A stretch of DNA of 63,898 bases, the filler included, from Licmophora abbreviata (lineage: Eukaryota): NCBI GenBank assembly GCA_900291995.1. It is 18 parts of 18 records of this genome, joined end to end, with 100 filler letters (N's around TTAATTAATTAA, not from the genome) between each part and the next. Parts side by side here need not be neighbours in the genome. Positions count along the whole stretch, not along the records: positions 20,138 to 25,698 come from OLMU01003891.1; 17 more parts are not named here. The stretch is one strand, 5' to 3'. The notes under the pieces were generated by a model that made no database searches, had not been told where the DNA came from, and saw only the letters and a list, made by a program, of their open reading frames with translations. Made by a program: the position numbers and the translations under genes. Below are positions 1 through 26,330 of this stretch, piece by piece. The first letter of the stretch is position 1. Each line of letters begins with the position of its first letter.

Positions 1-51
1 GCCCGGCCCTGTCAAGACCGGGCGCGTCTGGCGGGTGCATCTGGCGGTGGC

Positions 52-639
52 TCAGGCGGCTTGAAGCTCGCCGATCTGATCCAGCGCGCGGGCAAGGCTT
101 GCATCGGCGTCCAGCGCCAGTTGATCGGCGGCCACCACGGTCACGTCGGTGATCCCGACAAAGCCGAGGATATGGCTCATATAGGTCGAGGCGTAGTCGA
201 TCGCGGCGCCCGCCTGCGTGCCGCCCGAGGCCATCGCAAGGAGCGCGCGCTTGCCGGTCAGCAGGCCTTCGGGGCCGGTTTCGGTATAGCGGAAGGTGAC
301 ACCGGCGCGCGCCACATGGTCGATCCATGCCTTCAGCGCCGAGGGCACGCCGAAATTGTAGACCGGAAGCCCGATCACCAGCGTATCGGCGGCGCGCAGC
401 TCGTCGATCAGGCTGTCGGACAGCGCAAGCGCCTTCCCTTGTGCGGCGGTGCGGTTGGCCTCGGGGGTGACATTCGCGCTCACCCAGTCCTCGGTCAGAT
501 GCGGCAGGGGGTCTGCGGCCAGATCGCGATGCCGCAGATTGGCGGCCGGCCAAAGGGCGGCGATGCGCCCGGTCAGATCGCGGGTGACAGAGCCTTGGGC
601 GCGCGCCGAGGCGTCGATACGAAGAATGCTATGGGTCAT
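52..639 (-). CDS. azoR: FMN-dependent NADH-azoreductase (AzoR/AcpD family), 195 aa
   Basis: C-terminal part of ORF 52..1596. Starts MTHSILRIDASAR at ATG 639 with an AGGA SD-like motif upstream. Motifs GLPVYNFGVPSALKAWIDHVARAGVTFRYTETGPEGLL and ASGG are typical of AzoR. Confidence 0.92.
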   Translation of the reverse strand: MTHSILRIDASARAQGSVTRDLTGRIAALWPAANLRHRDLAADPLPHLTEDWVSANVTPEANRTAAQGKALALSDSLIDELRAADTLVIGLPVYNFGVPSALKAWIDHVARAGVTFRYTETGPEGLLTGKRALLAMASGGTQAGAAIDYASTYMSHILGFVGITDVTVVAADQLALDADASLARALDQIGELQAA

Positions 640-765
640 CAGAGTCGTCCTGTGCGATTGGGGATGTGTTCCGTCATCGCGATAAGTAGCCTGTGCCTTT
701 TCAAACGCAATCTTTCGTGAGAAACATTGAGTGTTGAGATTTGCACATTGGTTATCGGAGCCTTC

Positions 766-1647
766 ATGGACAACTGGGACGAGATCCGCACCGCCTTCAA
801 CGTGGCCCGCATCGGCACGGTCAGTGGCGCCGCCGAGGTGCTTGGCGTGCATCACGCCACGGTCATCCGTCATATCGACGCGCTGGAGCAGCGCCTTGGG
901 GTCAAGCTGTTTCAACGGCACGCGCGCGGCTATACCCCGACCGAGGCGGGCGAGGATCTGTTGCGCGTGGCGCAGGCCACCGATGACCAGTTCTCGCAGC
1001 TTGTCGGGCGCATCAAGGGGCGTGGCAACGATGTCTCGGGCGAGTTGGTGGTCACCTCGCTTGGCGGGCTCAGTCATCTTCTGGTTCCGGTCCTGACCGA
1101 GTTTCAGGCCGAATTCCCCGATATCATCGTGCGCTACCTGACCGGTGACCGGCTCTTTCGGCTGGAATATGGCGAGGCGCATGTGGCGATCCGCGCCGGT
1201 GCCGTGCCCGATCAGCCCGACAATGTGGTGCAGCCCTTTTTCGAGCAGAAGATCACGCTTTTCGCCTCCGACGCCTATGCCGCGCGCCATGGTCTGCCGC
1301 AGTCCGAGGCCGAGATGTCCGGGCACCGTTTCGTCGGGGCCGATGACCCTAATTCCCGCGCGCCGTTCTTTCGCTGGATGCGCGAGACGATCCCGGCGGC
1401 CAATATCGTGTTCCGCAGCGGCGATGTTCATGCGCAGCGCCGCGCGATCAAGCAGGGCGCGGGCATCGGTTTCGTGTCGCGATTGCAGGCCCGCGAGATG
1501 GGCGGCCTGATCGAGGTTGTCCCGCCGCGCGAGGACTGGGCCGCGCCCTTGTGGCTGGTGACCCATATGGACCTGCACCGCACCACCAAGGTGCAATCCT
1601 TCCTGTCCTTTCTCAAGAAACGCGCCCGCGATTGGGACGACGCATGA
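766..1647 (+). CDS. LysR-family transcriptional regulator, divergent from azoR
   Basis: GGAG SD at 757-760 and ATG at 766. N-terminal HTH (GTVSGAAEVLGVHHATVIRHIDALEQRLGVKLFQR..GY.PTEAG) followed by a substrate-binding domain. Confidence 0.93.
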   Translation: MDNWDEIRTAFNVARIGTVSGAAEVLGVHHATVIRHIDALEQRLGVKLFQRHARGYTPTEAGEDLLRVAQATDDQFSQLVGRIKGRGNDVSGELVVTSLGGLSHLLVPVLTEFQAEFPDIIVRYLTGDRLFRLEYGEAHVAIRAGAVPDQPDNVVQPFFEQKITLFASDAYAARHGLPQSEAEMSGHRFVGADDPNSRAPFFRWMRETIPAANIVFRSGDVHAQRRAIKQGAGIGFVSRLQAREMGGLIEVVPPREDWAAPLWLVTHMDLHRTTKVQSFLSFLKKRARDWDDA

Positions 1648-2578
1648 GCGACCGGCTTCGCGGTCATCTTGCGATGCTCTCCTTCTCGGCGCTGATCGCG
1701 GGGTCTTTCGCGCTTGGCTCCATGGCCGCGAACGAGATCGCGCCCACAGCCCTGAATGCGGTGCGCTTCGTGATCGCCGCCTGCCTTCTGGGGGCGGCGG
1801 CGCATGCCACGCATGGCCTGTCGCGGCCCGCGTTCCGGGCGCCGTGGCGCTATCTGATCCTTGGCGGGTCGATGGGGCTTTACTTCGTGCTGATGTTCGA
1901 GGGGCTGAAAACCGCGCGCCCGGTGTCGGCGGCGGCGGTGTTCACNNNNNNNNNNNNNNNNNNNNNNNNNNNNNNNNNNNNNNNNNNNNTTAATTAATTA
2001 ANNNNNNNNNNNNNNNNNNNNNNNNNNNNNNNNNNNNNNNNNNNNTGACCCGGCGCATGGCGCTTGCGCTCAGCGTTGGCGGCGCGGGTGCGCTCTGGGT
2101 GATCTTCGAGGCGGATTGGGCGGCTTTGGCGGCCTTTCAGGTGGGCCGCGGCGAGGCGATCTATTTCCTCGGCTGTGTGGCCCACGCCTTTTATACGCCG
2201 ATGGTGCGCAAGCTGAACCGGGGCGAGCCGCCGGTCGTCTTCTCCTTTGGTGCCATGGTTGCCGCGGCCCTTCTGGTGACAGGCGCGGGCTGGCCCGCGC
2301 TGCGCGCGACCGACTGGGGCGCCTTGCCGCCGATCGTCTGGATCACGCTGGCCTATGTGACGGTGGCGGCGACGGCGATCACCTTCGTTCTACTGCAATA
2401 CGCGTCGCTCAGGCTGCCAAGCGCCAAGGTGATGGCCTATACCTATCTCACCCCGGTCTGGGTGATCTGCTGGGAGGCGGCATTGGGAAATGGCGTGCCG
2501 CCTGTGATGGTGATGCTCGGGGTGGCGATGATCCTGACGGCGCTGGTGCTGCTCCTGAAGGACGAGCACCCGGCCTAG
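1644..2578 (+). CDS. EamA/DMT-family transporter, interrupted by assembly spacer 1946-2045
   Basis: Start overlaps the LysR stop (ATGA). Hydrophobic multi-TM sequence with LNAVRFVIA before the gap and YASLRLPSAKVMAYTYLTPVW after it. Confidence 0.85.
1946..2045. other. Artificial contig spacer N44-TTAATTAATTAA-N44 (stop codons in all six frames)
   Basis: Identical 100-nt spacers start at 1946, 3055, 5124, 7577, 17966, 20038, 25699, 31816, 36387, 38242, 39622, 42337, 45418, 51562, 56314, 60824 and 62300. Confidence 0.99.
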
Positions 2579-2929
2579 TCAATCCTCGTTGGACAGGGCC
2601 GTGTCACCGCCTGACAGCTCGGCCGCCAGAAACTTCTCGAACGCATCGAGGTTCACCGCCTCGAACTGCCCGAAGCTCTGCATCCAGATGCTTGCGTCGC
2701 GCAGGGCGTCGGGTTCCAGCTTGCACCATTTGACCCGCCCGCGCCGTTCCTGGCTGATAAGCCCCGCGCGGCTGAGAATCCCCAGATGCTTGGAAATCGC
2801 GGTCAGCGACATCTCGAACGGCTCGGCCACGTCGGTCACGGCCATGTCATCCTCCAGAAGCATCGACAGGATCGCCCGTCTGGTGGGGTCGGCCAGGGCC
2901 TGAAAGGTGATATCGAGCTCTTCGGACAT
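2579..2929 (-). CDS. ArsR/SmtB-family transcriptional regulator, 116 aa
   Basis: MSEELDITFQALADPTRRAILSML...AISKHLGILSRAGLISQERRGR is a typical ArsR winged HTH. Convergent with, and directly abutting, the EamA stop. Confidence 0.9.
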   Translation of the reverse strand: MSEELDITFQALADPTRRAILSMLLEDDMAVTDVAEPFEMSLTAISKHLGILSRAGLISQERRGRVKWCKLEPDALRDASIWMQSFGQFEAVNLDAFEKFLAAELSGGDTALSNED

Positions 2930-2960
2930 GCAGGCCATAAAGCGCGGCGCCTGTCGTTCG

Positions 2961-2976
2961 TCAACCATTTGGTTGA
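2961..2976. promoter_or_regulatory. Perfect inverted repeat TCAACCA-TT-TGGTTGA, probable ArsR autoregulatory operator
   Basis: 7-2-7 palindrome about 30 nt upstream of the ArsR start. ArsR-family repressors bind dyads over their own promoters. Confidence 0.6.
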
Positions 2977-3272
2977 ATATGCCGAAATGACCAGAACGGC
3001 GCTGGAGACGGCTGCGGCACAATACCCCGGCTCTTGTGGCGCTGATATTTATCANNNNNNNNNNNNNNNNNNNNNNNNNNNNNNNNNNNNNNNNNNNNTT
3101 AATTAATTAANNNNNNNNNNNNNNNNNNNNNNNNNNNNNNNNNNNNNNNNNNNNTGATATTTATCACATTTTTTCAAATACTTAGCGCTTACTGCGCAGG
3201 TCTTCACGCGCGCTTGACTCACTGCCATCCGCCGCATAGCAAAGGCACAACCGTTCCAAGGGGTGAACCATC

Positions 3273-3635
3273 GTGACAGATCCCGACCAAAGCGAGCGCC
3301 TGGCGCAGCTTGAGGACAGGATCGCGGCTCTGAAAAAGCAGAAGGAGCCGCGTCACCATTCCGAGGAACACTACAGTCAGGCGCAGGTCGCCTGGCGGAT
3401 GGTAACGGAACTTGTGGCCGGTCTGATGATCGGCTTCGGCATGGGATACGGGCTTGATAGCCTGTTCGGGACGATCCCGATCTTCCTCGTGCTGTTCACA
3501 TTGCTGGGTCTGGCCGCGGGCATCAAGACGATGATGCGAAGCGCAGACGAAATCCAGCGCAAGAAGCTGGCCGAAGAGGCCGAAGACACTGCGCCCGGAT
3601 CGGGCGACGACAAGAGGACGAAAGATGGCGACTGA
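3273..3635 (+). CDS. atpI: ATP synthase protein I (AtpZ/AtpI family)
   Basis: [44 protein letters not shown] motif. First gene of the F0 operon; GTG start. Confidence 0.9.
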
Positions 3636-4380
3636 AGCGAAGGGCGAAGCAGGCGGTCTGGTGTTCCACCCGATGGATCAGTTCATCGTGAGCCCGCTGT
3701 TCGGAGACGGCCCGGTGGGTCTTTTCACGATCACCAATGTGACACTCTGGATGGCACTGACCATCATCGCCGTCATCGCGCTGATGGTTCTGGGCACCTC
3801 CGGGCGCTCGACCATTCCGGGTCGGATGCAGTCGATCGGCGAGCTGGCGTATGGCTTTGTCTACAAGATGGTCGAGGATGTCGCCGGCAAGGATGCCGTA
3901 GGCTTCTTCCCGTATATCATGACGCTGTTCATGTTCATCGTCTTCGCCAACTTCCTTGGCCTGATCCCCGGCTCGTTCACCACCACGTCGCATTTCGCCG
4001 TGACGGTCGTGCTGGCGCTGCTGGTGTTCATCACCGTCACCGTCGTGGGCTTCGTCAAGAACGGCGCGGCGTTCCTTGGCCTCTTCTGGGTGAGCAGCGC
4101 GCCCCTGCCGCTGCGCCCGATCCTCGCCATCATCGAGGTGATTTCCTACTTCGTGCGTCCCGTCAGCCACTCGATCCGTCTTGCCGGCAACCTGATGGCC
4201 GGTCACGCGGTGATCAAGGTGTTCGCCGGCTTCGCCGCGATCGCGGCGGTCAGCCCGCTGGCGATCCTTGGCGTCACCGCGATGTACGGGCTCGAAGTCC
4301 TGGTGTCCTTCATCCAGGCCTATGTCTTCACGATCCTGACCTGCGTGTATCTCAAGGATGCGCTGCATCCCTCGCACTAA
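3625..4380 (+). CDS. atpB: F0 ATP synthase subunit a
   Basis: [40 protein letters not shown] (conserved Arg), [14 protein letters not shown]. Confidence 0.98.
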
Positions 4381-4432
4381 GGTCGAACCGCTCAAACATA
4401 CCTACAACTTCCAATCGTAAGGAGAATACATC

Positions 4433-4657
4433 ATGGAAGGTGAACTCGCACATATCGGCGCAGGTCTCGCAGCAATCGGTTCCGGCGCAGCCGCAATCGG
4501 TGTGGGCAACGTGGCAGGCAACTTCCTGTCCGGCGCTCTGCGCAACCCCTCGGCAGCGGCCGGTCAGACCGCGACCCTGTTCATCGGCATCGCATTCGCA
4601 GAAGCACTGGGCATCTTCTCGTTCCTGGTCGCTCTGCTGCTGATGTTCGCCGTCTAA
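4433..4657 (+). CDS. atpE: F0 ATP synthase subunit c
   Basis: 74 aa with GxGxGxG helix, RNP loop and ion-binding Glu in FAEALGIF. Strong AAGGAG SD. Confidence 0.98.
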
Positions 4658-4740
4658 GCCTTACGGAACCTTTCCTTACGTGCGGGCGGCTGGCAGGACT
4701 GGCCGCCCGATAGTGAGACCAAGTTCCGACGGAGGACGCA

Positions 4741-5346
4741 ATGGCGACCGAAACAACCGGGCAGACTGTAAGCACCTGTGTCGTTGACGGCTCTGCCGTC
4801 GGCATGCCCCAGCTGTGCTTCGACTGGTGGCCCAACCAGATCTTCTGGCTCACGGTCACGCTGGTCGTGATCTTCTTCTTCCTGTCGCGCGTGGCCCTTC
4901 CGCGCATCGCGGCCGTTCTGGCCGAGCGTCAGGGAACCATCACCAACGATCTCGCCGCAGCCGAGGATCTCAAGGTCAAGGCTGTCGAGGCCGAAGAGGC
5001 GTACAACAAGGCGCTGGCCAATGCCCGCGCCGAGGCGCAGAAGATCATCGCTCAGGCCAAGGCAGAAATCCAGGCGGATCTCGATGACGCGACCGCCAAG
5101 GCCGACGCCGAAATCGCAGCCAANNNNNNNNNNNNNNNNNNNNNNNNNNNNNNNNNNNNNNNNNNNNTTAATTAATTAANNNNNNNNNNNNNNNNNNNNN
5201 NNNNNNNNNNNNNNNNNNNNNNNGGTGCGATGGACAGCGTCAAGGAGGTGGCCAAGGACACCGCCAAGGAACTCGTCGCCGCTTTGGGTGGCAGCGCCGA
5301 TGCGCGGTCGATCACCTCGGCTGTCACTGCAAAGATGAAGGGATAA
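4741..5346 (+). CDS. F0 ATP synthase subunit b', interrupted by spacer 5124-5223
   Basis: GMPQL...PNQIFWL...[12 protein letters not shown]. After the gap the frame reads [22 protein letters not shown]...KMKG*. Confidence 0.92.
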
Positions 5347-5351
5347 GCGCC

Positions 5352-5921
5352 ATGAGAGGATCTTCCATGCTGATCGCGCTTGCCGCCACGGTCTCTGCCA
5401 GCCCTGCGCTGGCAGCTGCGGGCAAGCCCTTCTTCTCGCTCGAGAATACCGATTTCGTCGTGACGCTCGGCTTTCTGGTGTTCATCGGCATCCTGCTTTA
5501 CTTCAAGGTGCCGTCGCTTCTGGGTGGGCTTCTCGACAAGCGCGCCGAGGGTATCAAGTCCGAGCTCGACGAGGCGCGCGCGCTTCGTGATGAGGCACAG
5601 ACCCTGCTTGCGGGCTACGAGCGCAAGCAAAAGGAAGTGCAGGAACAGTCCGAGCGCATCATCGCCGCCGCCAAGCAGGAGGCCTCCGAGGCCGCCGAGC
5701 AGGCCAAGCTGGACCTCAAGGCATCGATCAAGCGCCGCCTCAAAGCGGCCGAGGATCAGATCGCATCGGCCGAAGCCAACGCGATCCGCGATGTTCGCAA
5801 CGAAGCGATCCGGATTGCCGTGGCCGCCGCCACCGATGTGATCGCCAAGAACATGACCGCCGCCGACGGCAACAAGCTGATCGACGACGCCATCGGACAG
5901 GTCGACGCCAAGCTGCACTGA
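5352..5921 (+). CDS. atpF: F0 ATP synthase subunit b
   Basis: PFFSLENTDFVV.LGFLVFIGILLYFKVP..LDKRAEGIKSELDEA, followed by an Ala-rich coiled coil. Confidence 0.95.
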   Translation: MRGSSMLIALAATVSASPALAAAGKPFFSLENTDFVVTLGFLVFIGILLYFKVPSLLGGLLDKRAEGIKSELDEARALRDEAQTLLAGYERKQKEVQEQSERIIAAAKQEASEAAEQAKLDLKASIKRRLKAAEDQIASAEANAIRDVRNEAIRIAVAAATDVIAKNMTAADGNKLIDDAIGQVDAKLH

Positions 5922-5946
5922 CGCTTGCCGCAGGCCAGAAATGAAC

Positions 5947-5980
5947 AAGCCCGGTCCTGAGTGACCGGGCTTTTTCTTTT
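5947..5980 (+). terminator. Rho-independent terminator of the F0 operon
   Basis: Stem AAGCCCGGTC / GACCGGGCTT with a 6-nt loop, followed by a T-rich run. Confidence 0.9.
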
Positions 5981-6018
5981 GGGCCGGGGGGAGCGGGGGT
6001 TCATTTTGTCGGGCGCCG

Positions 6019-6050
6019 AAAAATGAAAGGGGGCCGTTGGTTCGGCCCCT
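6019..6050 (-). terminator. Rho-independent terminator on the minus strand
   Basis: Minus strand reads GGGGCCG-AACCAA-CGGCCCC followed by CTTTCATTTTT. Confidence 0.75.
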
Positions 6051-6143
6051 CGATCATTCCTGCCACGTTGACACTGAACACCTTGTGATACGCGAGAGGG
6101 CATGTTCTGAGTGCTGCCCGGTCATCCCGTATCGGAACCGTTG
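6019..6143 (-). ncRNA. Candidate ~125-nt small RNA between the atp operon and folC
   Basis: Sigma70-like promoter TTGACC(6177-6172)-N17-CAATAT(6154-6149) upstream and an intrinsic terminator downstream. No credible enclosed ORF. Confidence 0.45.
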
Positions 6144-6287
6144 CACAGATATTGGCGACTCAGATCGAATCGGTCAACGCCTAGTGATTCGATTACACGA
6201 AATTTCCTGCCTCAGCGCGAAAGTGACCCGCGAAACGCTCTCGAGATGGACGCGGTCGCGACCGGCAGGCGCGTTGCCGGTTCCCTG

Positions 6288-7562
6288 TCAGCCGTTCTCG
6301 CGCAGAACGCCGCCCGCCAGATAGAGAGAGCCGCAAATCAGGATGCGCGCCTTGGGGTCCGCGCGAGTGATCCGCTGCACCGCATCCAGCACGGTGCTTG
6401 CCACATGCGCTTCCATCCCGGCGGCGCGGGCGGCGGCGGCGGTCGTCTCGGCGGGCAGGGTATTGGCCTCGCCGGGGATCGACACGGCGGTCAGGCTTGC
6501 CGCCTGCGCCGCCAGCGGCGCGAGGTAGCCCGCGATATCCTTGGTGTTCAGCATCCCGCAGATCAGATGCGTGGACCGTGCGGGCAGGGTGGCCAGATGC
6601 CGCCCAAGCGCCTGTCCCGCCGCCGCGTTATGCCCGCCATCCAGCCATAGCTCGGCCTCGGGTGCGGCCTCGATCAGCGGTCCATGCTGCAGCTTCTGCA
6701 TCCGGGCGGGCCATTCGGCGCGGGTGACGGCGGCCTCCTGTGCCGCCTCTCCAAGACCCAGATGGCGCAGCGCTGCAAGCGCGGCACCGGCATTGTCGAT
6801 CTGGTGCGCGCCCGGCAGATTGGGCAGCGGCAGATCGGCCAGCCCGGTTTCGTCCTGAAACACCAGACGCCCGTGATCCTCGCTGACATGCCAGTGCTGC
6901 CCTTGGGCGATCAAGGGCGCGCCAAGCGCCTGTGCGCGGGCCTCGATCGCGGCTTCCGCCGCCTCTTCCTGTGGGCCGACGACGCAAGGAACGCCCCGCT
7001 TGAGGATCCCGGCCTTTTCGCCTGCGATCTTGGCCAGCGTGTCGCCCAGATATTGCTCGTGATCCATCGACACAGGGGTGATGACCGTGAGGGCAGGGCG
7101 CGCGATCACGTTGGTCGCATCCAGCCGCCCGCCAAGACCCACCTCCAGCAAGGTGTAATCGGCTTCGGTCCGCGACATGGCCAGCAGCGCCGCACAGGTG
7201 GTGATCTCGAAATAGGTGATCGGCTCGCCGCCATTGGCGGCGTAGCATTCGTCGAGAACGGCGCTCAGGTCGGGTTCCGAAATCAGCTCTCCGGCCAGCC
7301 GGATACGTTCGTGAAACCGCGCCAGATGCGGCGAGGTATAGGCATGCGCGCGCAGCCCCGCCCCCTCGATCCCGGCGCGGATCATCGCCAGCGTGGAGCC
7401 CTTGCCGTTGGTGCCTGCGATATGGATCACCGGCGGCAGACGGTCCTGCGGATTGTCCAGCCGCTCCAGAAGACGCCAGACCCGGTCCAGCGTGAGGTCG
7501 ATGATCTTGGGGTGCAGCGCCATCATCCGGTCGAGGATGGCGTCGGAATGAAGGCCGCTCAT
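6288..7562 (-). CDS. folC: Bifunctional folylpolyglutamate synthase/dihydrofolate synthase
   Basis: IHIAGTNGKGST P-loop, YTSPHL..FHERI, EVGLGGRLDATN, LDGGHN, ICGSLYLAG. The start overlaps the stop (ATGA) of an upstream gene cut off by the gap; accD is the usual neighbour (inference). Confidence 0.97.
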   Translation of the reverse strand: MSGLHSDAILDRMMALHPKIIDLTLDRVWRLLERLDNPQDRLPPVIHIAGTNGKGSTLAMIRAGIEGAGLRAHAYTSPHLARFHERIRLAGELISEPDLSAVLDECYAANGGEPITYFEITTCAALLAMSRTEADYTLLEVGLGGRLDATNVIARPALTVITPVSMDHEQYLGDTLAKIAGEKAGILKRGVPCVVGPQEEAAEAAIEARAQALGAPLIAQGQHWHVSEDHGRLVFQDETGLADLPLPNLPGAHQIDNAGAALAALRHLGLGEAAQEAAVTRAEWPARMQKLQHGPLIEAAPEAELWLDGGHNAAAGQALGRHLATLPARSTHLICGMLNTKDIAGYLAPLAAQAASLTAVSIPGEANTLPAETTAAAARAAGMEAHVASTVLDAVQRITRADPKARILICGSLYLAGGVLRENG

Positions 7563-7676
7563 TCGGTGGCGTTTGGNNNNNNNNNNNNNNNNNNNNNNNN
7601 NNNNNNNNNNNNNNNNNNNNTTAATTAATTAANNNNNNNNNNNNNNNNNNNNNNNNNNNNNNNNNNNNNNNNNNNN

Positions 7677-8734
7677 GGCTCCACGCTTCTCCGAGTCCCA
7701 GAGTCGGCGCCGATTCGTCGAGCTCGTATGAACAACACGAACAAGCATACGGGGGTGGGAGTCCATCATTATCATCCTTGGCAGCCCGTTGTAGTAATCA
7801 TGATGATCAGCTCGTTGTCGACTGTTCTCGAAGACGCGCACTGCAGAACATCGTGTGTCTTGGAAGGACCAGTAGTGTTGCGGCAGCCCTAGTCCTATTA
7901 TTGGATCCCCGTGTCGCCGTGGCACAAACAGAAACCTTGTCTCTTCCTCATGTTGCTACTGTTCAGAAGAAGCCATTCGCTCCGATCGAGAATCTTCTCC
8001 CCGCCGCGCGTGTCAAAGCTTCGATCGATCGATCTGTCGTGGCAGCGAAAGCTCTACAGGCATCATCAGACGACAACGAAAAAGAAGAGCTGCTACGGGA
8101 GCTGCAGTACCTGATTCTAGCGCCCCGCTCCTCTTATATAACGAAACAAGAAGCGTCCACTGCGAAACGATATCTTCAAATCGACACCTTGAACGAGTGG
8201 ACCAAGGCTCGTCAAAAGGATGCTGAAAGTAACGTCTTTCCTGCAGATTCAGCAGCATCCGTGGATCCTCTTACACGTCTCAATGAAGGATTCGAACAAT
8301 GGGGAGAACGTGGTCAGTTTCGTCGGTTAAGACGACAGCAGATTGCGTTGGAGAACATCAATCCGATGCGTGCCGCCTTTAACAGTTACACCAACAACCT
8401 TGTGTTTGGTGACACCTATGTGCTTACGGCAGAGAGTTCCGAGAAATCCAGAATGATTCGACAGGATCAGCTACCCGATGTAACTTCGGTAATCAGGAGT
8501 GATCTGGATCTGAGGGATCTATATAGGAATCAAATACTGACAGCCATGGATGATGCGAGAGCCGAGTTGAAGTATCAGTTGGAGCAGATGGATGATTCAG
8601 CAAGGGACATGAGCGAGCTAGTGTCGCTACTGATTGGTGCTCAGAACTCCTGCAACAATTGGTTCGACTTTGTACCGGAAGTAGATGTCAAGACAGCCAT
8701 GCAGAAGGTGCTTGCTGAAGAGGGCATAGTATAG
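7677..8734 (+). CDS. Hypothetical algal protein, 5'-truncated, probably thylakoid-lumen targeted
   Basis: Frame is open from the contig edge. SRRRAL...hydrophobic stretch...AVA resembles a twin-arginine lumen signal. The rest is a helical protein of unknown family. Confidence 0.55.
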
Positions 8735-9151: not shown

Positions 9152-12100
9152 ATGGACCAGAGACAACGGTGCTGGTTCTTGTCGTCGTTGTTGCTTATCT
9201 CTTGGCTTGCTCCTTCTCTCTCGTTAAGTTTGTCTGATCGTCCTCGACGAAAGATGACCTCGAAACCAGGAGACGGCAAGTTTCATTTCTGCATCGATCG
9301 CGGTGGAACCTTTACGGACGTTCACGTGATCCTGCCCGATGGCCAGCAGCTAGTCACCAAGTTGCTTTCCGAAGACCCCATGCACTACGATGATGCTCCC
9401 ACAGAGGGGATCAGGAGGCTTTTAGAAAAGTATACAACCACCCAGACAGCATACGCTCGAAGTGCTCCATTGAAAACGCACGAAATCGGCAGCATCCGAA
9501 TGGGAACGACCGTCGCCACGAACGCCTTGCTGGAACGCGACGGAGCTCCGTTGGCACTCGTCATCACCCAGGGCTTTGGAGATTTATTGGAGATTGGCAA
9601 TCAGGCACGTCCCGATATTTTTGATCTCACATGCGCCAAGCCCAGCTTATTGTACAAGCAGGTGGTGGAGATTGACGAGCGAGTCGTCTTGGATGCGTTC
9701 TACCCGACGGAACTCGCCGAACAGTATCCAAAATTCACTGGAATCACGGGAGAGCATGTGCGTGTCATGAAAGCGCCTGACCTAGCGGTGGTCCGAAAGC
9801 AGCTCCAGCCTCTGTTGGACTCGGGCATTACGGCGTTGGCTATTTGTACCATGCACAGTTACGTCTATCCGGAACACGAACTCATGATTGGTAAGGTGGC
9901 CGAGGAGATGGGATTTGAACAAATCTCTTTGTCCAGTCAGGTCATGCCCATGGTGAAGATTGTCAGTCGGTGAGTGCTTTGAATAATTAGGAACGAGGGT
10001 AGATCGTGATTGACTGAAACTCTGCCTCACCGACACACCTTTCTCACTACCTTTCTGCAGCGGACACACGGCATGCGCGGCGGCCTATCTCACTCCCAAA
10101 ATCACCACGTATCTTTCATCCTTTCGCAAGGGATTTGATGCTGACCTTTCCAAAGTCCCTTTGACGTTCATGAAGAGTGATGGCGGTTTAGCCCCCGTTG
10201 ACGACTTTGGTGGACACCAAGCTATCCTGAGCGGTCCGGCTGGTGGAGTCGTGGGATATGCAAAGACAACGCCAACCCGCCCCGTAATTGGCTTTGACAT
10301 GGGAGGAACGTCAACTGATGTATCCCGATATGCAGGATACTGGGAACATGTTTTCGAGACGGTTACTGCTGGAGTCGCCATTCAAGCGCCACAGCTCGAC
10401 ATTAACACAGTGGCTGCTGGAGGAGGTAGTCGTTTGTTTCTGCGATCTGGATTGTTTGTTGTGGGACCGGAGAGCGCCGGGGCCCATCCAGGGCCTATTT
10501 GTTATCGCAAGAATGGATATCTTGCGGTTACTGATGCCAACGCTGTGTTAGGAAGGGTACTTCCTGAGTACTTTCCCAGCATCTTCGGACCGAACGAAGA
10601 CGAGCCGCTGGACGTGGGTGGCTCACGGAACGCGTTTGAGAAGCTAGCTAAAGAGGCGGAAGCTGCAGGGCGAAGTGCAGAGGAACTCGCATATGGCTTC
10701 TTGCAGGTGGCCAACGAAGCTATGTGTCGACCAATTCGGAACTTGACACAGATGAAGGGATTCGACATCACGACGCACACGCTTTCTTGCTTTGGAGGCG
10801 CAGGACCACAGCATGCTTGCGCCATGGCCAAAGCCTTGGGCATGACCAAAGTCTTTGTGCATCGCTACGGTGGTGTGCTATCTGCGTATGGACTGTCTAT
10901 GGCGGACGCTGTTCGGGAAGAGCAGGAACCAGCGGCTGAAGTCTACTCCACGCCCACGGCTGGTGTCTGTACCGACACAGAAGCTCGTGACGCACGATTT
11001 GCACACCTTTCCGAGAAAGCTCAGGGAATCCTCATAAAGGAAGGATACAAGGAGGAAGAAATTTTGATCGAAAAATACTTAAACATGCGCTATGAAGGGA
11101 CGGACAATGCCATCATGATCCAGGAGTCCAACGAGATTCCTTATGGAGAGACATTTTACAATCAATACATGCGGGAGTTCGGATTTGCGCTCGAAGGCCG
11201 AAGTATTCTCATTGATGACTATCGCGTTCGGGCTGTTGTTCCTGGCGAAACTCCAACTCCACCGACGCCCGCCGCTCCACTTGGAGCCCCATCGCCGGGG
11301 GGAACGATGCGCGCCTTCTTTGAAAATGGATGGGAGGATATCTCAGTGCACAAGATTGAGGAGCTGAGGCCGGGTCACGAGATAAATGGGCCCAGTATCA
11401 TAGTACAGGAGATCAGTACGGTTGTTTTGGAGATTGGATGCTCGGCAATTGTAACCGCAGATGGAGATTTGGACATCACGGTCGCTGCAGCAGAGACGGT
11501 CGACGAGGAAGAGGATGGAAAAATGGTCATCAAAGAAGATCCAGTGAAGCTTTCTATCATGGTATGTCAAGGCGCTTGTGCGCTATTCCTTCATGTTGAA
11601 GAGACATCAATTCTGACGATTTGTTTCCACTTTCTTTGCAGTCGCATCGATTCATGGGCATTGCCGAACAGATGGGACGCACGCTCCAGCGTACCGCCAT
11701 CTCGGTCAACATGAAGGAACGTCTTGATTTCTCTTGTGCACTGTTTACTGCCGATGGCGGCCTTGTGGCCAATGCGCCACATATTCCAGTCCATCTTGGC
11801 GCAATGCAGTCTGCAGTCAAATTCCAAGCCGAATATTGGAATATGGAAGGTCGGGAAGGAATCAAGGAAGGCGAAGTGAGTGCAGCTGTGTACACCTGCA
11901 CCCATGTCCACTGAGTAGTGCTGATTGCTCATACCACTTTTTTGTCATTGCATTTAGGTACTCGTCTCGAACCATCCTCAGCTGGCTGGTGGATCCCATC
12001 TCCCAGATATCACAGTCATTACGCCTGTGTTTCATCATGGAGAGATAATTTTCTACGTTGCGAGTCGTGGTCATCACGCCGACATTGGAGGCATTGCACC

Positions 12101-13274
12101 TGGATCCATGCCTCCACATTCAACTTGTCTGGAAGACGAGGGAGCAACGATTGTCGCCTTCAAGCTGGTAAGGGATGGAAAGTTCCAAGAAGAGGGCATC
12201 ACTGAGATTCTGATGGCTCCAGGGAAGCTGGAGGGGAACTCGGGCACGCGAAATCTGCGGGACAACTTGTCCGACTTGAGAGCCCAGGTGGCGGCTAACA
12301 ACTCGGGTATCCGACTGCTGACAGAGCTCGTTCACGAACATGGACTGCACACCGTTCAGGCTTATATGGAATTCATCCAGAAAAATGCAGAGATCTCTGT
12401 TCGCAAGATGTTAAAAGAGTTCGCAGCACGACATGGAACGACGGCGCACGCTATCGATTTTATGGATGACGGAAGTCCGATCGAGCTGACCATTTCCATT
12501 GACAAAGATACAGGGGACGCCTTCTTTGACTTTTCAGGAACCGGACCACAGGTTCTCGGAAACCACAACGCTCCCCCCGCAGTCACTTACTCGGCAGTCA
12601 TTTACTCGCTGCGCTCGTTGGTGGCGCAGGACATTCCATTGAATCAGGGATGTCTTGCTTCCATCAAGTTCAGTATCCCGAAGTACTCACTGCTCAATCC
12701 ATCGTCTGACGCCGGAGTCGTTGGTGGAAACGTGGTGACATCGCAGCGAGTCGTCGATGTTGTTCTGCGCGCATTCAAGGCATGCGCAGCGAGTCAGGGG
12801 TGTATGAATAACCTTACGTTTGGAGATGACAAGTTTGGGTACTACGAGACGATAGCTGGTGGTGCGGGTTCTGGTCCGACGTGGGCAGGAAGAAGTGGAG
12901 TCCACACGCATTGTACAAACACGCGCATTACCGATCCCGAAATTCTCGAGAGACGTTATCCAGTCCTGTTGAAGCAATTCGCTTTGCGTCAAGGCAGTGG
13001 TGGGCTCGGCAAGTTCAAGGGTGGAGAAGGTGTCATTCGTGAGATCGAGCCCCTCCGCCCTTTGGTCATGTCGATTCTGAGCGAACGACGTGTCTTGCAC
13101 CCTTACGGGATGGCAGGAGGTGAAGAAGGCGCCTGTGGTCGGAATTTACTGCGCAAGAAGGGAGGAATCTGGGTCAATATGGGAGGACGGTGCAGCAGCA
13201 CCATGGACGTTGGAGAATGCCTTCGGATCGAGACTCCTGGTGGAGGTGGATATGGACCTGCCGAGACCTCGTAG
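9152..13274 (+). CDS. OXP1: 5-oxoprolinase (ATP-hydrolysing, fused hydantoinase A/B type), 3 introns
   Basis: [70 protein letters not shown] introns at 9970-10060, 11562-11641 and 11876-11957 give a continuous frame. Confidence 0.95.
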
Positions 13275-22661: not shown

Positions 22662-23090
22662 GTCCGCTTTTAGTTTGTGATGTGTTTCATTGTGAAGACG
22701 TGGTGGAGCGAGTTTGATTGAGGAGAACAATAGTTTTATGTTCAGAAAGATATTTGTTAGCATTGAACTCCTCCACAAAATAGTACATACTCGTAGGCTG
22801 CTAGAGGGTTCGTAGCCGTCAACTAAAGCATACCAGTATCGTGGCACCAGCCAGATCTAGCGAGAACCACGCTTCCTACCAGACTGATGTCCGAGCAGAC
22901 CTCTCTGAACGCGCATGGGGATGAGGGAACGACCGCAAATGTCGTCATGGTCGTCCCAGGTGAATGTGATTCGGCAGCATGGGAAGCTGTATGACACTGG
23001 CGGACAGACCAACAACAACACACCGTCCGTCTGCCCGTCCGTCAGTGTAAGTTGGTTGGAGTTAGACGATGCCCAACAATCACGTTCACC

Positions 23091-24620
23091 ATGAGGATCC
23101 TTGGCTGCGGCTGTGTTCTTGTTGTCATCTTGTTTGTCCCTCACATATGGGCATGGAGTCCTTCTTATAGTATCCTACATGCGCAGCGAGTTTCAGGGTC
23201 AGAAATGACTCGAAAGAAACAAAGGCGGCCTTCGACACGGTCCTTCTCCTCAGCGACCTCTAGCACCACCAGCAGCATGCCATCGTACAAGGAACGCCTC
23301 TCGCAATGGAAGATTCCAACGAATCTACCCAAACTACTAGTGTTCGACTTAGATAACACACTGTGGACACCAGAACTATATCAGATTAAGAGAAGCCGAA
23401 AGCAAGTCCCAATCGCAAACAAGGACATCCGTCTGTTTGAAGGGGTACTTGAATTACTGCAACTGCTGTCTTCTCGCGATGAGTTTCAAGGCGTCCAGCT
23501 CGCTGTGGCTTCCCGGACTAACAAGGGCGATTGGGCAAGAGAGCTGCTTCAAAATTTTGTCGTACACGGCGACATGAACACCAATCTGCAAGACATTCTG
23601 GATCACGTCGAAATCTACACTGGCAGCAAGCGGCGTCACTTTGAGGCGCTCAAAGAACAGGCAAACATGAAGTTTTCGGACATGGTATTCTTTGATGATG
23701 ATGTACACTTGAATCTGAATGAAGTGTCGGCTATGGGCGTCTTTTGTAGTCACTGCCCACATGGACTTACAGTCGACTTATTCATGTCAACGTTGGACAA
23801 GTACGATGAGCTGCTACTACAGCACTCTTCCGGTCACTGGATGGGACACATTGTGAATTCTCAGAAGCTCGGTCTCGCAACAGCCACAGCACTCGATGAA
23901 GGCCGTAAAACTACAGGAGTCGTCACATTTTACAATCCCACAAAGCGATTTGGCTTTGTCCGTGAGCTCAACAAAACCGACAAGGAGTTCTTCTTTCACG
24001 AATCCAAAGTTGCCGAGGGTGTCATGGTGGAGAAGGGCATGCGCGTCGAATTCGAAACACTCGTGGATGGCAAAGGGCGTCCTGCAGCTGCGGTTCTCTC
24101 CAGCAAGGACGAGGATGGATCCTCGAACGACCAAAACCTTGTATCCATGCCATGCTTCACCATGAGCCAGCCGTTCGTGGCGCTGCTGCTGAATGGCATA
24201 AAGACGGTTGAGACGCGAAACAACGATATGTTTCGTGATGTAACGCCCGGTACACGTGTCTTACTTCACTGCGGTCGTCGGGATTGGAAAGACCTTGAGG
24301 CGCCCAGAATTGCACTGCGCCAGGCTGGATATTCCGACGATGACATAGACAAACTCTCCAAACTGCCCAAAAACATGGCGAAAGGAAGCATCGTCGGTAT
24401 TCTGACGGTTGGCCGGACATGGGAATCTAATCCACAGGAACGACAATCCTCAGATTTACAACGACAAGTGGTGGCGAATGAGCATGACATGGGAAAAATC
24501 TGCACCGCCATTTCGAATGCACAGTGGTTAGACCGACCAGTGCGTACACGCGGAAACCCTGGCGTGTACAAGGTTCCTTTCCCCAAGGACAGGCTACCAT
24601 CGCCTGGTAGCAATGATTAG
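23091..24620 (+). CDS. Fusion: signal/transit peptide + MDP-1 HAD phosphatase + cold-shock domain + ASCH domain
   Basis: One intronless ORF. HAD motifs FDLDNTLW / VASRT / GSK / FFDDD; CSD RNP motifs KRFGFV / FFFHES; ASCH motifs MSQPFVALLLNGIKTVETR, GSIVG and RGNPGVY. Confidence 0.85.
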   Translation: MRILGCGCVLVVILFVPHIWAWSPSYSILHAQRVSGSEMTRKKQRRPSTRSFSSATSSTTSSMPSYKERLSQWKIPTNLPKLLVFDLDNTLWTPELYQIKRSRKQVPIANKDIRLFEGVLELLQLLSSRDEFQGVQLAVASRTNKGDWARELLQNFVVHGDMNTNLQDILDHVEIYTGSKRRHFEALKEQANMKFSDMVFFDDDVHLNLNEVSAMGVFCSHCPHGLTVDLFMSTLDKYDELLLQHSSGHWMGHIVNSQKLGLATATALDEGRKTTGVVTFYNPTKRFGFVRELNKTDKEFFFHESKVAEGVMVEKGMRVEFETLVDGKGRPAAAVLSSKDEDGSSNDQNLVSMPCFTMSQPFVALLLNGIKTVETRNNDMFRDVTPGTRVLLHCGRRDWKDLEAPRIALRQAGYSDDDIDKLSKLPKNMAKGSIVGILTVGRTWESNPQERQSSDLQRQVVANEHDMGKICTAISNAQWLDRPVRTRGNPGVYKVPFPKDRLPSPGSND

Positions 24621-24677: not shown

Positions 24678-25355
24678 TTACAGCGCATTCAACCGCGCCT
24701 TCAAATCGGGCAATGCACTGTCGAGCGCTTCTTGTTCTGCTGCAGAAAGTTCTTCGCCTTGCGGTTTGGCTGCAGGCGCTTGCAGTCCCACCATTTGCGA
24801 GTCCATCTCCACTCCGAGTTCTGCCAAGACCTGGCTTGTCACTTCCTCCGCTTGCTCGTCCAGCTCGTCATTATCAAACGCATCAATCAGAGCATCATTC
24901 ATCATTTCCTCCTTGACTTGCAGAGTCTCATTCTGTTTGGCGAACTCTGCCATGATCTTGGTCGTTTCCGACGCACTCATGGCAGCATTCGCCTTACCCA
25001 TAGCCTCCGAGACACTGCTCATTGCCGACGCCGCCGCCACTTGCGACGCCATACTGGTCGCATGCATACCAACCGCGGACAACTGTGCCTTGGCCGCATA
25101 CAGCTTCTGCCGTTGTTGACGAATCGTTACAAGCTGCTTGGCAAGTGCCGCCAGGGCAGGATCTTTATTGGAACTGGCCTGTTTGGCTCGCTGTTTGAGT
25201 TCGATGACGACTTGCTTCTCTTGTCGATCCAACTCGCGCAATTCGCGCTCCATATCACGCTGCGAGCTTCGAACTTCGCGACGTGTCTCTCGTTTGGCCT
25301 CCCGAGCTGCCTCCTTGGGCGTGGGCTTTTTGGAAAAGGGATGCCACGATGTCAT
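24678..25355 (-). CDS. VPS2: ESCRT-III subunit Vps2/CHMP2 (Snf7 family)
   Basis: RDMERELRELDRQEKQVVIELK, LAKQLV.IRQQ, KEEMMNDAL, VLAELG, and a C-terminal MIM-like DLKARLNAL. Confidence 0.9.
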   Translation of the reverse strand: MTSWHPFSKKPTPKEAAREAKRETRREVRSSQRDMERELRELDRQEKQVVIELKQRAKQASSNKDPALAALAKQLVTIRQQRQKLYAAKAQLSAVGMHATSMASQVAAASAMSSVSEAMGKANAAMSASETTKIMAEFAKQNETLQVKEEMMNDALIDAFDNDELDEQAEEVTSQVLAELGVEMDSQMVGLQAPAAKPQGEELSAAEQEALDSALPDLKARLNAL

Positions 25356-26330
25356 GGTGGATTGCAATAAAGAGAGAAAAGAAGGGGGGATATGCAGCCT
25401 GCGAGCGTGTGGCACAAGCACGAGTGAATAGATGTCGTGATGGTGAGACAGACAAAAACAAGGGTGATTGCAATGTGCCGAAATCCTCGAAAAGTCCGTT
25501 TACACTGGACCTGCACTTGGTATCCTATAGAATGGTCCGAGAATCAACATTGACTCTCTCTCGTTGCTACCACTATGTTTCTTCACCCCACACGAGTCGA
25601 CATGCCATGATACTACCCGGGAATGAGAGTGTACGCAACGACCAACACAGAACTCTCGGCTGTTTCGTCTATTTTCGATCAATTTTCATTTTCATGACNN
25701 NNNNNNNNNNNNNNNNNNNNNNNNNNNNNNNNNNNNNNNNNNTTAATTAATTAANNNNNNNNNNNNNNNNNNNNNNNNNNNNNNNNNNNNNNNNNNNNCA
25801 TTTTCATGACTTTCTTAGTTTCCTACCTTTATTTGATGCCACCTATCACACTAGAATGCCGGATAGCGACGATAAGACTCCAGTGAGGGAAAGAAACGCA
25901 CGAACAACTCCAATGGTGTTGGCGAGCAGTGTTGTGTCGTCGTTGTTCGTGGTTTGTGTCTCCGTGTTTCTCTGGAGCTCGGAGCTCGCACTTTAAGGGT
26001 GTCTGTTATTGAGTGTGTCTGTCAAGTTATGGAAAGGTGGCACACGGCCGACTATCCATGTGTAACTCCCGCTACGTTGTCTGTTCCAGGACTGCACGTT
26101 CTCACCAAAAAATAAAAAAATGGACATTGAACATGGTCATTGGACACATCGAGTGGTCGTCGTTGCTGGTCTCTGTTACAGCCGTTGTAGTGGTTGAGGC
26201 AGTTCTATTGTAGTCGGCAGGTGACTGAAGGAGAGAAGCTGCTATCGGGGAGTAAAAGAAAGGCTCTGATTGGATAAAACATTGAATTTTGGAAGACTGA
26301 ATTCTTCTGGTGAGGCACCCGCAAGCAGCC

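Follow-up and report, generated by a model that had tools for sequence, protein, structure and literature searches.

MDP-1 is a HAD phosphatase without a cap domain, and the role reported for it is that of a fructosamine-6-phosphatase. PDB titles show an initial deposition under the name of a hypothetical phosphotyrosine phosphatase, which would be a macromolecule-directed enzyme. Human EOLA1, an ASCH protein, is reported to remove the acetyl group from N4-acetylcytidine (ac4C) as a free nucleotide or in unstructured RNA, whereas ac4C in helices is left untouched, and a role in nucleotide salvage has been assigned to it (Relier et al. 2026); it is also described as accepting ac4CTP directly and as leaving ac4C in cellular RNA unchanged. 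Nineteen ASCH proteins are reported to lower tRNA ac4C on overexpression (Statkeviciute et al.), and the Escherichia coli enzyme YqfB is described as active on the free nucleoside. The activity of EOLA1 is disputed: in cited work, mouse EOLA1 expressed in E. coli was inactive on free ac4C, and the R26A variant is given as inactive in one study and as showing no significant activity loss in another. Preprints likewise dispute its location, cytosolic and ribosome-proximal versus mitochondrial; one describes it as a partner of 12S rRNA and TUFM within the mitochondrial matrix (Shi et al., bioRxiv 10.64898/2026.01.12.699056). Residue S7 of human EOLA1, in the catalytic pocket, is reported as phosphorylated in ~44% of peptides, and an alcohol residue at this position as conserved across the clade.

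For organelles, C34 of chloroplast elongator tRNA-Met is described as unmodified, the sole mention of the modification being that it was detected in a lysate of rice chloroplasts (PMC8877259), and mitochondrial tRNAs are reported to be without ac4C. Fusions of the EOLA/TRIP4-like ASCH clade with HAD-phosphatase and S1-like domains occupy one Discussion sentence in the preprint of Relier et al. 2026. Among the papers listed by a literature search, no relevant one joined magnesium-dependent phosphatase with diatom, cold shock domain or ASCH. Dorrell et al. 2017 (PMC5462543) mention neither phosphatase, cold shock nor ASCH in their main text, and the 770 ancestral plastid proteins of that study may include the family. 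We analyzed a gene from Licmophora abbreviata, located in a window of 63,898 nucleotides (the whole stretch of DNA that was analyzed), whose architecture the original prediction had taken to be undescribed. That view stands insofar as we found no characterization of such a protein, and it has to be amended for the sentence in Relier et al. 2026.

Reading frame and domain composition

The open frame extends from 23052 to a stop codon at 24618-24620, and the first in-frame ATG, at 23091, yields a protein of 509 amino acids (Table 1). Homologues are colinear with this protein from end to end, with a query coverage of 83-96%. An AlphaFold2 model of the 509-residue chain has a mean pLDDT of 87.5 and a pTM of 0.68; residues 1-55 are disordered and residues 60-509 confident, with the linker at 342-346 as the sole low-confidence insert. 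Given the confident model and the colinear alignment, we rejected both a chimeric ORF and a retained, unspliced intron. A three-domain fusion in one frame is far beyond chance, and a chance ORF was rejected as the source of the frame at 23091-24620, as was a prokaryotic contaminant, because the homologues belong to eukaryotic algae. Judged by its sequence, the gene is nuclear and of diatom type, and its product joins a phosphatase, a cold-shock domain and an EOLA1 relative behind a predicted plastid-import signal. Among the sequencing runs listed none was of RNA, and one of uncertain kind (0.06 of sampled words) gave contigs of 164 and 157 bases over 22894-22997 and 24112-24256, which have no bearing on transcription.

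Table 1. Features of the Licmophora abbreviata fusion gene, with positions along the window.
Feature	Positions	Strand	Basis
Whole CDS, 509 codons plus stop, single exon	23091..24620	+	Translation, homologue alignment
Predicted signal peptide, residues 1-21, likely cleavage IWA-W with W at +1	23091..23153	+	Kyte-Doolittle scan
Transit-peptide-like stretch, residues 22-76, disordered in model	23154..23318	+	Composition, pLDDT
Internal Met39, possible second start, lead only	23205..23207	+	Homologue comparison
MDP-1-type, HAD-IIIC phosphatase domain, residues 77-246	23319..23828	+	Pfam, NCBIfam, PDB, Foldseek
HAD motif I DxDxT, D86-T90, nucleophile Asp	23346..23360	+	Invariant columns
Cold-shock domain, residues 273-336	23907..24098	+	Pfam, Csp structures, Foldseek
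EOLA1-type ASCH domain, residues 352-503	24144..24599	+	PDB EOLA1/CXorf40, Foldseek
K371, E374, R376 of GxKxxExR octapeptide, corresponding to EOLA1 K21, E24, R26	24201..24218	+	Alignment

The HAD domain scores well above the Pfam Acid_PPase cut-off (PF12689, residues 79-240, E 1.1e-39, 136.4 bits versus 27) and also passes the NCBIfam models TIGR01685 for MDP-1 (59.3 bits versus 53.75) and TIGR01681 (57.6 versus 35.75). Among solved structures, phmmer matched residues 77-236 to MDP-1 (2wm8, 1u7o) with E values of 1e-17 to 4e-15, and Foldseek matched MDP-1 (1u7p, 1u7o, 2wm8) with E values of 7.5e-11 to 2.9e-10, target-length TM scores of 0.78-0.84 and 32-35% identity. All four HAD motifs can be read in the translation (D86-T90, S141-R142-T143, K180 and D202-D203). 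In an alignment of 108 of the 121 sequences, with 13 omitted as truncated or partial, D86, D88, T90, S141, R142, T143, K180 and D203 are invariant, and D202 is kept in at least 90%. Nearly all fused and stand-alone relatives carry the subfamily signature W-x-P-E-[LM]-Y after motif I, which is missing from the solved MDP-1 aligned to the HAD domain. Since this loop is unlike that of solved MDP-1, the substrate data for MDP-1 are not transferable to the fusion.

The cold-shock domain was recognized by Pfam CSD (PF00313, residues 275-335, E 3.7e-8, 33.6 bits versus a cut-off of 27), by phmmer against Csp structures (E 1.5e-3 and weaker) and by Foldseek against CspA/CspB (target-length TM 0.80-0.85). 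Five strands in the model (273-282, 287-292, 299-303, 318-325 and 331-339) form the OB fold, and stretches resembling RNP1 and RNP2 lie near G288-F289 and F301-H303 in the translation. These four residues, G288, F289, F301 and H303, are each kept in at least 90% of the 108 sequences.

Residues 352-503, a span of 152 residues, match EOLA1/CXorf40 (6kir, 9kyi, 5y7d) by phmmer with E values of about 1e-18. Foldseek pairs the domain with EOLA1 at target-length TM scores of 0.84-0.85 (26-28% identity) and with the TRIP4 ASCH domain at 0.61-0.69; YqfB was returned neither by phmmer against solved structures nor by Foldseek. The Pfam ASCH model PF04266 stays under its cut-off (15.7 versus 21.2 bits, E 0.026) and covers residues 357-394 only, and precomputed annotation assigns it to 0 among the 120 matches listed. 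This model is insensitive to the EOLA1-type clade, with the consequence that public annotation reads "MDP-1 + CSD" or "hypothetical protein" and the third, enzymatic domain is invisible. The GxKxxExR octapeptide lies at G369-R376 and aligns to EOLA1 without gaps, and its K371, E374 and R376, for whose EOLA1 equivalents catalytic roles are reported, are invariant in the 108 sequences. T357 precedes K371 by 14 residues, as S7 precedes K21 in EOLA1, and the homologue consensus at this position is S. The domain thus has both marks of the EOLA1/TRIP4-like clade, Glu rather than Thr/Ser two residues before the Arg and a residue with an alcohol side chain in register with S7, under a rule that we take from published ASCH work. 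A two-chain fold test of HAD (77-246) versus ASCH (347-509), run without controls and with the supplied alignment unused, scored 0.00.

Presequence and predicted targeting

The N-terminal hydrophobic stretch ends at IWA-WSP, and the next 57 residues include 21 S/T, 10 R/K and 2 D/E. Model confidence is low over much of this region, with pLDDT below 50 for residues 12-53. Of the 74 homologues whose N-extension reaches 45 residues or more, 60 have a hydrophobic N-terminal stretch by a crude hydropathy scan, as does the L. abbreviata protein. We used a strict rule for the cleavage site, F/W/Y at +1, with a control: a small residue and then F/W/Y close the stretch in 43 of the 60 scorable homologues versus 22.6% of 3000 control windows, and a permissive version also taking L at +1 gave 55/60. 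An F/W/Y/L directly after the cleavage site (the ASAFAP-type motif) is the rule described for diatom aminoacyl-tRNA synthetases (PMC4494062), and both IWA-W here and the small-plus-F/W/Y pattern across homologues agree with it. The putative plastid-type presequence is thus supported by its conservation among homologues.

Met39 precedes a basic, hydroxyl-rich stretch, and an internal Met is found in this region in 40/60 homologues; in 22/60 the next 15 residues hold three or more R/K and no more than one D/E, both being uncontrolled counts. Several gene models (P0013, P0025 and P0008) begin exactly at the internal Met. A start at Met39 could possibly yield a mitochondrial-type presequence, and dual targeting has a reported precedent in the diatom aminoacyl-tRNA synthetases (PMC4494062).

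Working from sequence, the original prediction had called a single uninterrupted ORF encoding a plastid-type presequence, an MDP-1 HAD domain with its four motifs, a cold-shock domain with RNP motifs and an EOLA1/CXorf40-like ASCH domain. The frame and the three domain calls are borne out here, and the presequence call is supported by conservation among homologues. Its nucleotide ranges for the domains agree with ours within a few codons, except that the HAD domain reaches ~50 nt further, to ~23810.

Recurrent fusion of HAD and ASCH domains

The HAD-CSD-ASCH layout, recognized as PF12689 plus PF00313, occurs in 101 of the 120 matches listed. It is unlikely that the domains are transcribed separately, since all three lie together on each of three MMETSP transcripts flagged as complete (P0003, P0016 and P0093). 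Among pelagophytes, Aureoumbra, Chrysophaeum and CCMP2097 have a HAD-ASCH layout without the cold-shock domain, and the dinoflagellates Alexandrium and Cladocopium have the reversed order, ASCH-HAD, again without it. The stable link is therefore that between phosphatase and ASCH. Named homologues, a minority of all, come only from red-type complex-plastid algae (diatoms, Triparma, Heterosigma, pelagophytes, Chromera and dinoflagellates), and in one Atlas cluster of homologues the commonest phylum is Haptophyta.

We inferred an unrooted tree of the HAD domain with 52 rows, in which five reverse-order proteins form one group (100/98). This group nests among 11 stand-alone HADs, one of them from a red alga, and a 98/94 branch parts it from all 28 HAD-first fusions, a topology that fits two separate HAD/ASCH fusion events. 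Going by the sequences, the HAD/ASCH fusion is genuine and occurs widely among algae. Neither catalytic set varies across the 108 homologues, and both predicted activities therefore appear to be under selection. We note that some stand-alone rows in the tree may be fragments, and that P0227, of the reverse-order group, has no match to GxKxxExR.

Possible functions and comparison with known systems

We tentatively favor, at somewhat short of an even chance, an organellar enzyme that would dephosphorylate and N4-deacylate modified cytidine nucleotides or short RNA fragments from RNA decay. The predicted signal peptide would take the chain by the secretory route to the complex plastid, and a possible second start codon might take it to the mitochondrion. 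In the mature chain, two enzymes, an MDP-1-type HAD phosphatase without a cap and an ASCH amidohydrolase of EOLA1 type, would be linked by the cold-shock domain, which would bind single-stranded RNA and so keep the enzyme on RNA decay intermediates. The HAD domain would take off a terminal or mononucleotide phosphate and the ASCH domain would strip the N4-acyl group (in the known case acetyl) from the cytidine thus exposed, so that a blocked modified nucleotide would return as plain cytidine to the organelle pyrimidine pool. The location, both substrates, the reaction order and any coupling between the reactions are all part of this proposal. Two separate fusion events would be a classic sign of a common pathway or substrate for both enzymes, which suggests that the HAD and ASCH enzymes may act on common RNA breakdown products. 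Human EOLA1 is reported to take ac4CTP directly, so a phosphatase step before deacetylation is not obviously needed, and the sources cited here give no established ac4C source inside plastids; both points count against the salvage reading, as do the reported lack of ac4C in mitochondrial tRNAs and the disputed activity of EOLA1. The action on RNA or nucleotides that had been proposed in general terms fits recent reports of EOLA1/ASCH proteins as N4-acetylcytidine deacetylases. The idea of two RNA-binding modules holds less well: the two are unequal, the ASCH domain keeping its catalytic triad and the cold-shock domain being dispensable in pelagophyte and dinoflagellate relatives.

The protein might instead act on intact, functional organellar RNA rather than debris, as a regulator or repair enzyme and not in salvage, with the cold-shock domain binding single strands, the HAD domain healing 3'- or 5'-phosphate ends in the manner of polynucleotide-kinase-type phosphatases and the ASCH domain erasing N4-acetylcytidine, or a mark akin to it, from tRNA, rRNA or mRNA. 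This is rather unlikely in our judgment, even if most members keep the cold-shock domain with its RNP residues at 90% or above in the 108 sequences, the reported lowering of tRNA ac4C by overexpressed ASCH proteins and the in vitro deacetylation of unstructured RNA by EOLA1 point the same way, and capless MDP-1, with its deposition as a hypothetical phosphotyrosine phosphatase, would be macromolecule-directed. The pelagophyte and dinoflagellate versions lack the cold-shock domain, and the core function thus does not require tethering to RNA; cellular RNA ac4C is reported as unaltered by EOLA1, and the cited literature names no known ac4C site in plastid RNA. An organellar translation factor, in which the ASCH domain would bind small-subunit rRNA and EF-Tu, the cold-shock domain would be an RNA chaperone and the enzymatic residues would be secondary, draws on the reported binding of EOLA1 to 12S rRNA and TUFM in the mitochondrial matrix (Shi et al.) and on predicted organelle targeting together with a bacterial-type cold-shock domain in the fusion. 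It leaves a catalytically intact phosphatase joined to ASCH in two layouts unexplained, however, and leans on a localization about which preprints disagree; we regard it as improbable.

Plastid glycation or protein repair appears still less probable to us. The HAD domain would keep the fructosamine-6-phosphatase role of MDP-1, and the nucleic-acid modules would steer it to glycated nucleotides or RNA-bound proteins amid reactive sugar phosphates, consistent with a TIGR01685 score above cut-off, the MDP-1 fold match and a supported plastid presequence. Yet the loop after motif I is the different, subfamily-specific W-x-P-E-[LM]-Y, ASCH enzymes are described as cleaving amides and not ketoamines, and nothing in the analysis ties the family to glycation. 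Glycation repair and phospho-regulation on plastid ribosomes, both raised in the original prediction, accordingly found no support in any analysis here. It is also conceivable, at very long odds, that the chain switches itself, the fused HAD domain removing a phosphate from T357 as the equivalent of EOLA1 S7. T357 lies at an S7-like distance from K371 with S in the homologue consensus, and the reported phospho-S7 on ~44% of EOLA1 peptides and the alcohol conserved across the clade would agree with such a switch, but this is pure inference and a self-directed phosphatase would need no cold-shock domain.

Returning to the organellar dephosphorylating and deacylating enzyme, a broader and unlikely extension is that one conserved pathway has MDP-1-type phosphatases for one step and EOLA1-type ASCH deacylases for another, and serves to clear or recycle cytidine nucleotides that are N4-acylated or blocked in some other way. 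Red-type-plastid algae would have fused both at least twice and sent the product to organelles, and the diatom product may reach plastid and mitochondrion via the internal Met. If this were true, stand-alone animal MDP1 and EOLA1, the physiological role of each still being debated, would be pathway partners, and organelles would own a dedicated clean-up system for modified nucleotides. Fusion in two domain orders is a strong and cheap hint of a common substrate, giving a testable prediction for the human proteins and for algal organelles. It also opens the unexplored topic of how the chief marine primary producers rid their plastids and mitochondria of modified nucleotides.

Compared with known systems, the HAD domain shares all four HAD motifs with MDP-1 and passes the Pfam and NCBIfam cut-offs, but it has the W-x-P-E-[LM]-Y loop, is joined to other domains and is predicted to be organelle-targeted. 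CspA, CspB and CspE have the Pfam CSD and both RNP-like motifs in common with the fusion's cold-shock domain, which differs in sitting between two enzymes, in its weak sequence likeness and in being dispensable in some relatives. Human and mouse EOLA1/CXorf40 share the K/E/R octapeptide and the upstream alcohol residue but are single-domain proteins, without the phosphatase and the cold-shock domain that the fusion has. YqfB, a stand-alone ASCH N4-acetylcytidine amidohydrolase, has the fold class and the K and R of the octapeptide in common with the fusion; it is described as belonging to another ASCH clade, with T/S instead of glutamate. The dinoflagellate ASCH-HAD proteins (P0167 of Alexandrium monilatum and the P0183 cluster, with a member from Cladocopium goreaui) combine the same two enzyme families and keep the catalytic motifs, whereas their order is reversed, the cold-shock domain is absent and their HAD domain lies across the 98/94 branch from the diatom-type fusion. 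The HAD/S1-like fusions of Relier et al. 2026 are very probably the same family as the algal fusion; the passage cited gives neither taxa, targeting nor data.

Domains and conservation of the fusion protein

The fusion protein is a real, conserved and uncharacterized enzyme built entirely from known domains. The original prediction that an MDP-1-type HAD phosphatase, a cold-shock domain (CSD) and an EOLA1-type ASCH domain lie in one protein was borne out, approximate coordinates included, by Pfam, NCBIfam, structure matches and AlphaFold2/Foldseek. The protein passed the NCBIfam MDP-1 equivalog (59.3 versus 53.75 bits), and in a sequence search against solved structures residues 77 to 236 matched MDP-1 (E = 1e-17), residues 352 to 503 matched EOLA1/CXorf40 (E of ∼1e-18) and residues 273 to 336 gave weak matches to many Csp proteins. 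An AlphaFold2 model based on 108 homologues was confident (pLDDT 87.5, pTM 0.68) and poor only at residues 1 to 55 and linker 342 to 346, with Foldseek TM scores of 0.84 to 0.85 to EOLA1, 0.78 to 0.84 to MDP-1, 0.80 to 0.85 to CspA/CspB and 0.61 to 0.69 to the TRIP4 ASCH domain.

Features of the fusion protein and of the window
Feature	Location	Strand	Details
Fusion gene CDS	23091-24620	+	single open frame, 509 residues; stop 24618-24620
Acid_PPase	residues 79-240		Pfam E 1.1e-39
CSD	residues 275-335		Pfam E 3.7e-8
ASCH fragment (PF04266)	residues 357-394		Pfam E 0.026, under cut-off (15.7 vs 21.2 bits)
Snf7/ESCRT-III family gene, convergent with fusion gene	24678-25421	minus	Pfam E 8.9e-25
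Flavodoxin_2/FMN_red ORF	55-1596	minus	Pfam domain
Mur-ligase middle and C-terminal domains	6291-7562	minus	Pfam domain
Hydantoinase_A and Hydantoinase_B (oxoprolinase) halves, two successive ORFs	10161-13271	+	E 3e-89, 1.5e-150
PEPCK	57284-58834

The exact protein is absent from a 15-billion-protein collection, and a word-indexed search returned 129 relatives. Among the best 120 of these, which were listed, the closest is only 53% identical, query coverage is mostly 83 to 96% and spans all three domains, and the named sources include the diatoms Fistulifera, Mayamaea, Epithemia, Pseudo-nitzschia, Attheya and Amphora as well as Heterosigma, Triparma, a pelagophyte and Chromera. PF12689 and PF00313 are precomputed in 101 of these 120 homologues and PF04266 in none, so that they carry database names such as "MDP-1," "CSD domain-containing" or "hypothetical"; the EOLA1-like third domain, which the Pfam ASCH model scores too low, is thus hidden in public annotation. 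All three domains are present on three MMETSP transcripts marked complete, so relatives transcribe the fusion as a single mRNA. In an alignment of 108 of 121 sequences (13 truncated or partial ones were left out), invariant columns include D86, D88, T90, S141, R142, T143, K180 and D203 of the HAD and K371, E374 and R376 of the ASCH domain, while G288, F289, F301 and H303 of the CSD are conserved in at least 90%. Judged by sequence, the HAD and ASCH enzymes both look active.

The frame of the fusion gene is open from 23052, with its first ATG at 23091, in a region of ∼50% G+C whose genes look eukaryotic and compact. Downstream, the Snf7 gene has its stop at 24678, only 58 bases from the fusion-gene stop, and the two genes must therefore be almost in contact, or overlap, at their 3′ ends. 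An assembly gap lies immediately beyond the Snf7 gene, at ∼25700 to 25750, where unknown bases translate to X in ORF 25283-25750. Positions 1 to 8000 have a G+C content of 57 to 64%, versus ∼47 to 52% in the remainder of the window, and might represent foreign or bacterium-like DNA, a gene transfer or an assembly join. The two oxoprolinase halves probably belong to a single gene interrupted by an intron or a frame change.

Layouts of the fusion and the HAD tree

Searched exhaustively with HMMER, 1.84 billion representatives yielded 1,203 matches at E ≤1e-3 and 92 at E ≤1e-30, and layouts were assigned from a Pfam scan of 26 chosen matches together with motif scans and source names. HAD-CSD-ASCH is the common layout. 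The pelagophytes Aureoumbra, Chrysophaeum and CCMP2097 encode HAD-ASCH without a CSD, and the dinoflagellate Alexandrium monilatum and a cluster holding a Cladocopium goreaui protein have the reverse order, ASCH-HAD, with the catalytic motifs kept; the motif scan found no GxKxxExR match in one reverse-order row, P0227. The ESM Atlas holds an extra 50-member cluster, the commonest known phylum of which is Haptophyta (phylum is known for 6 members only). On the simplest reading, the phosphatase and the ASCH domain would be the stable partnership and the CSD an optional adaptor.

The HADs of all layouts and stand-alone relatives from Fibrocapsa and Porphyridium have the sequence W-x-P-E-[LM]-Y in common behind motif I; solved MDP-1 lacks this signature. 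In an unrooted maximum-likelihood tree of 52 HAD domains, all five reverse-order proteins cluster together (100/98) amid 11 stand-alone HADs, and a 98/94 branch divides this cluster from all 28 HAD-first fusions, whose side also holds 8 apparently stand-alone rows. Short sequences classed as stand-alone could be fragments. The simplest reading is nevertheless that the same two enzyme families were fused separately twice.

P0229, a 255-residue protein of the red alga Porphyridium purpureum, is an unfused HAD belonging to this subfamily, with ∼88 residues before motif I that may be a transit peptide; it hints that the phosphatase half arrived with the red plastid. Two proteins of the chlorarachniophyte Amorphochlora amoebiformis (P0217 and P0268, 812 and 840 residues) carry a HAD of this subfamily, with W-T-P-E-L-Y, behind a diacylglycerol acyltransferase domain, a partner quite different from ASCH or CSD.

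Predicted targeting presequence

The N terminus has a hydrophobic stretch ending IWA|W, and the next 57 residues, disordered in the AlphaFold2 model, contain 21 S/T, 10 R/K and 2 D/E. HAD motif I was located in 114 of 121 sequences; 106 of the 114 begin with M, and in 74 the motif is preceded by at least 45 residues. A hydrophobic stretch is present in 60 of these 74, and in 43 of those 60 a small residue and then F/W/Y stand at its end, compared with 22.6% of 3,000 control windows drawn from mature parts of the homologues; several misses, such as homologues P0066 and P0080, are window-edge cases visible by eye. The same cleavage-site pattern is described for diatom plastid presequences in the available text of PMC4494062, and we infer a probable plastid location.

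Past the putative signal peptide, 40 of the 60 homologues have an internal Met (Met39, 23205-23207, in the window), which opens a basic, acid-poor stretch in 22 of those 40, and some public gene models begin there. Homologues with this Met include P0007, P0013, P0015, P0018, P0025 and P0048. According to the same portion of PMC4494062, this layout in diatom aminoacyl-tRNA synthetases is read as dual targeting to plastid and mitochondrion. As a lead only, the internal Met could serve as a second start codon that sends the protein to mitochondria.

Possible function and comparison with EOLA1

Reported substrates of MDP-1 are sugar phosphates, phosphotyrosine and protein fructosamine-6-phosphate, and glycation repair in the plastid seems a quite improbable role for the fusion. 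We tentatively propose that the protein works in organelles as a bifunctional enzyme on products of RNA decay: the CSD would hold single-stranded RNA fragments, the HAD domain would take off a terminal or mononucleotide phosphate and the ASCH domain would strip the N4-acyl group from the exposed cytidine. Human EOLA1 is reported to remove the acetyl group from free N4-acetylcytidine, supplied as ac4CTP, and from ac4C within unstructured RNA, leaving helical ac4C of cellular RNA untouched (Relier et al., bioRxiv 10.64898/2026.08.01.741249). Against the decay-product proposal, plastids have no known source of ac4C in the available part of PMC8877259; EOLA1 activity is disputed, another study's mouse preparation being inactive per Relier et al.; and EOLA1 took the triphosphate directly, which leaves the need for a phosphatase step unexplained.

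An eraser and end-healing enzyme working on intact RNA is a doubtful candidate. According to Statkeviciute et al. (bioRxiv 10.64898/2026.02.27.708502), 19 ASCH proteins lowered tRNA ac4C, and mitochondrial tRNAs are without ac4C. Shi et al. (bioRxiv 10.64898/2026.01.12.699056) locate EOLA1 itself to the mitochondrial matrix, together with 12S rRNA and TUFM, and an organellar translation factor of that kind is an improbable identity for the fusion. It is highly improbable that the fused phosphatase regulates its own ASCH domain, where the conserved position-7 alcohol residue of EOLA1 is phosphorylated according to Relier et al.

The original prediction knew of no described protein with this architecture. 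The architecture itself has already been glimpsed in print (Relier et al.), in text that, as available, is without taxa, targeting or data, and our literature searches, partly of incomplete texts, found nothing further on the HAD-CSD-ASCH family. As far as these searches show, three findings are new: the plastid-type presequence is conserved, members with a named source appear confined to lineages carrying red-type plastids, and the CSD is dispensable, with the dinoflagellate ASCH-HAD fusion sitting on another branch of the HAD tree.

The fusion yields a testable prediction that extends to human MDP1 and EOLA1. From the texts available, K21, E24 and R26 line the EOLA1 pocket (Relier et al.), with K and E essential and R26A tolerated (Statkeviciute et al.). 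The window protein has the counterparts K371, E374 and R376, and its T357, 14 residues before K371, aligns with S7 of EOLA1.
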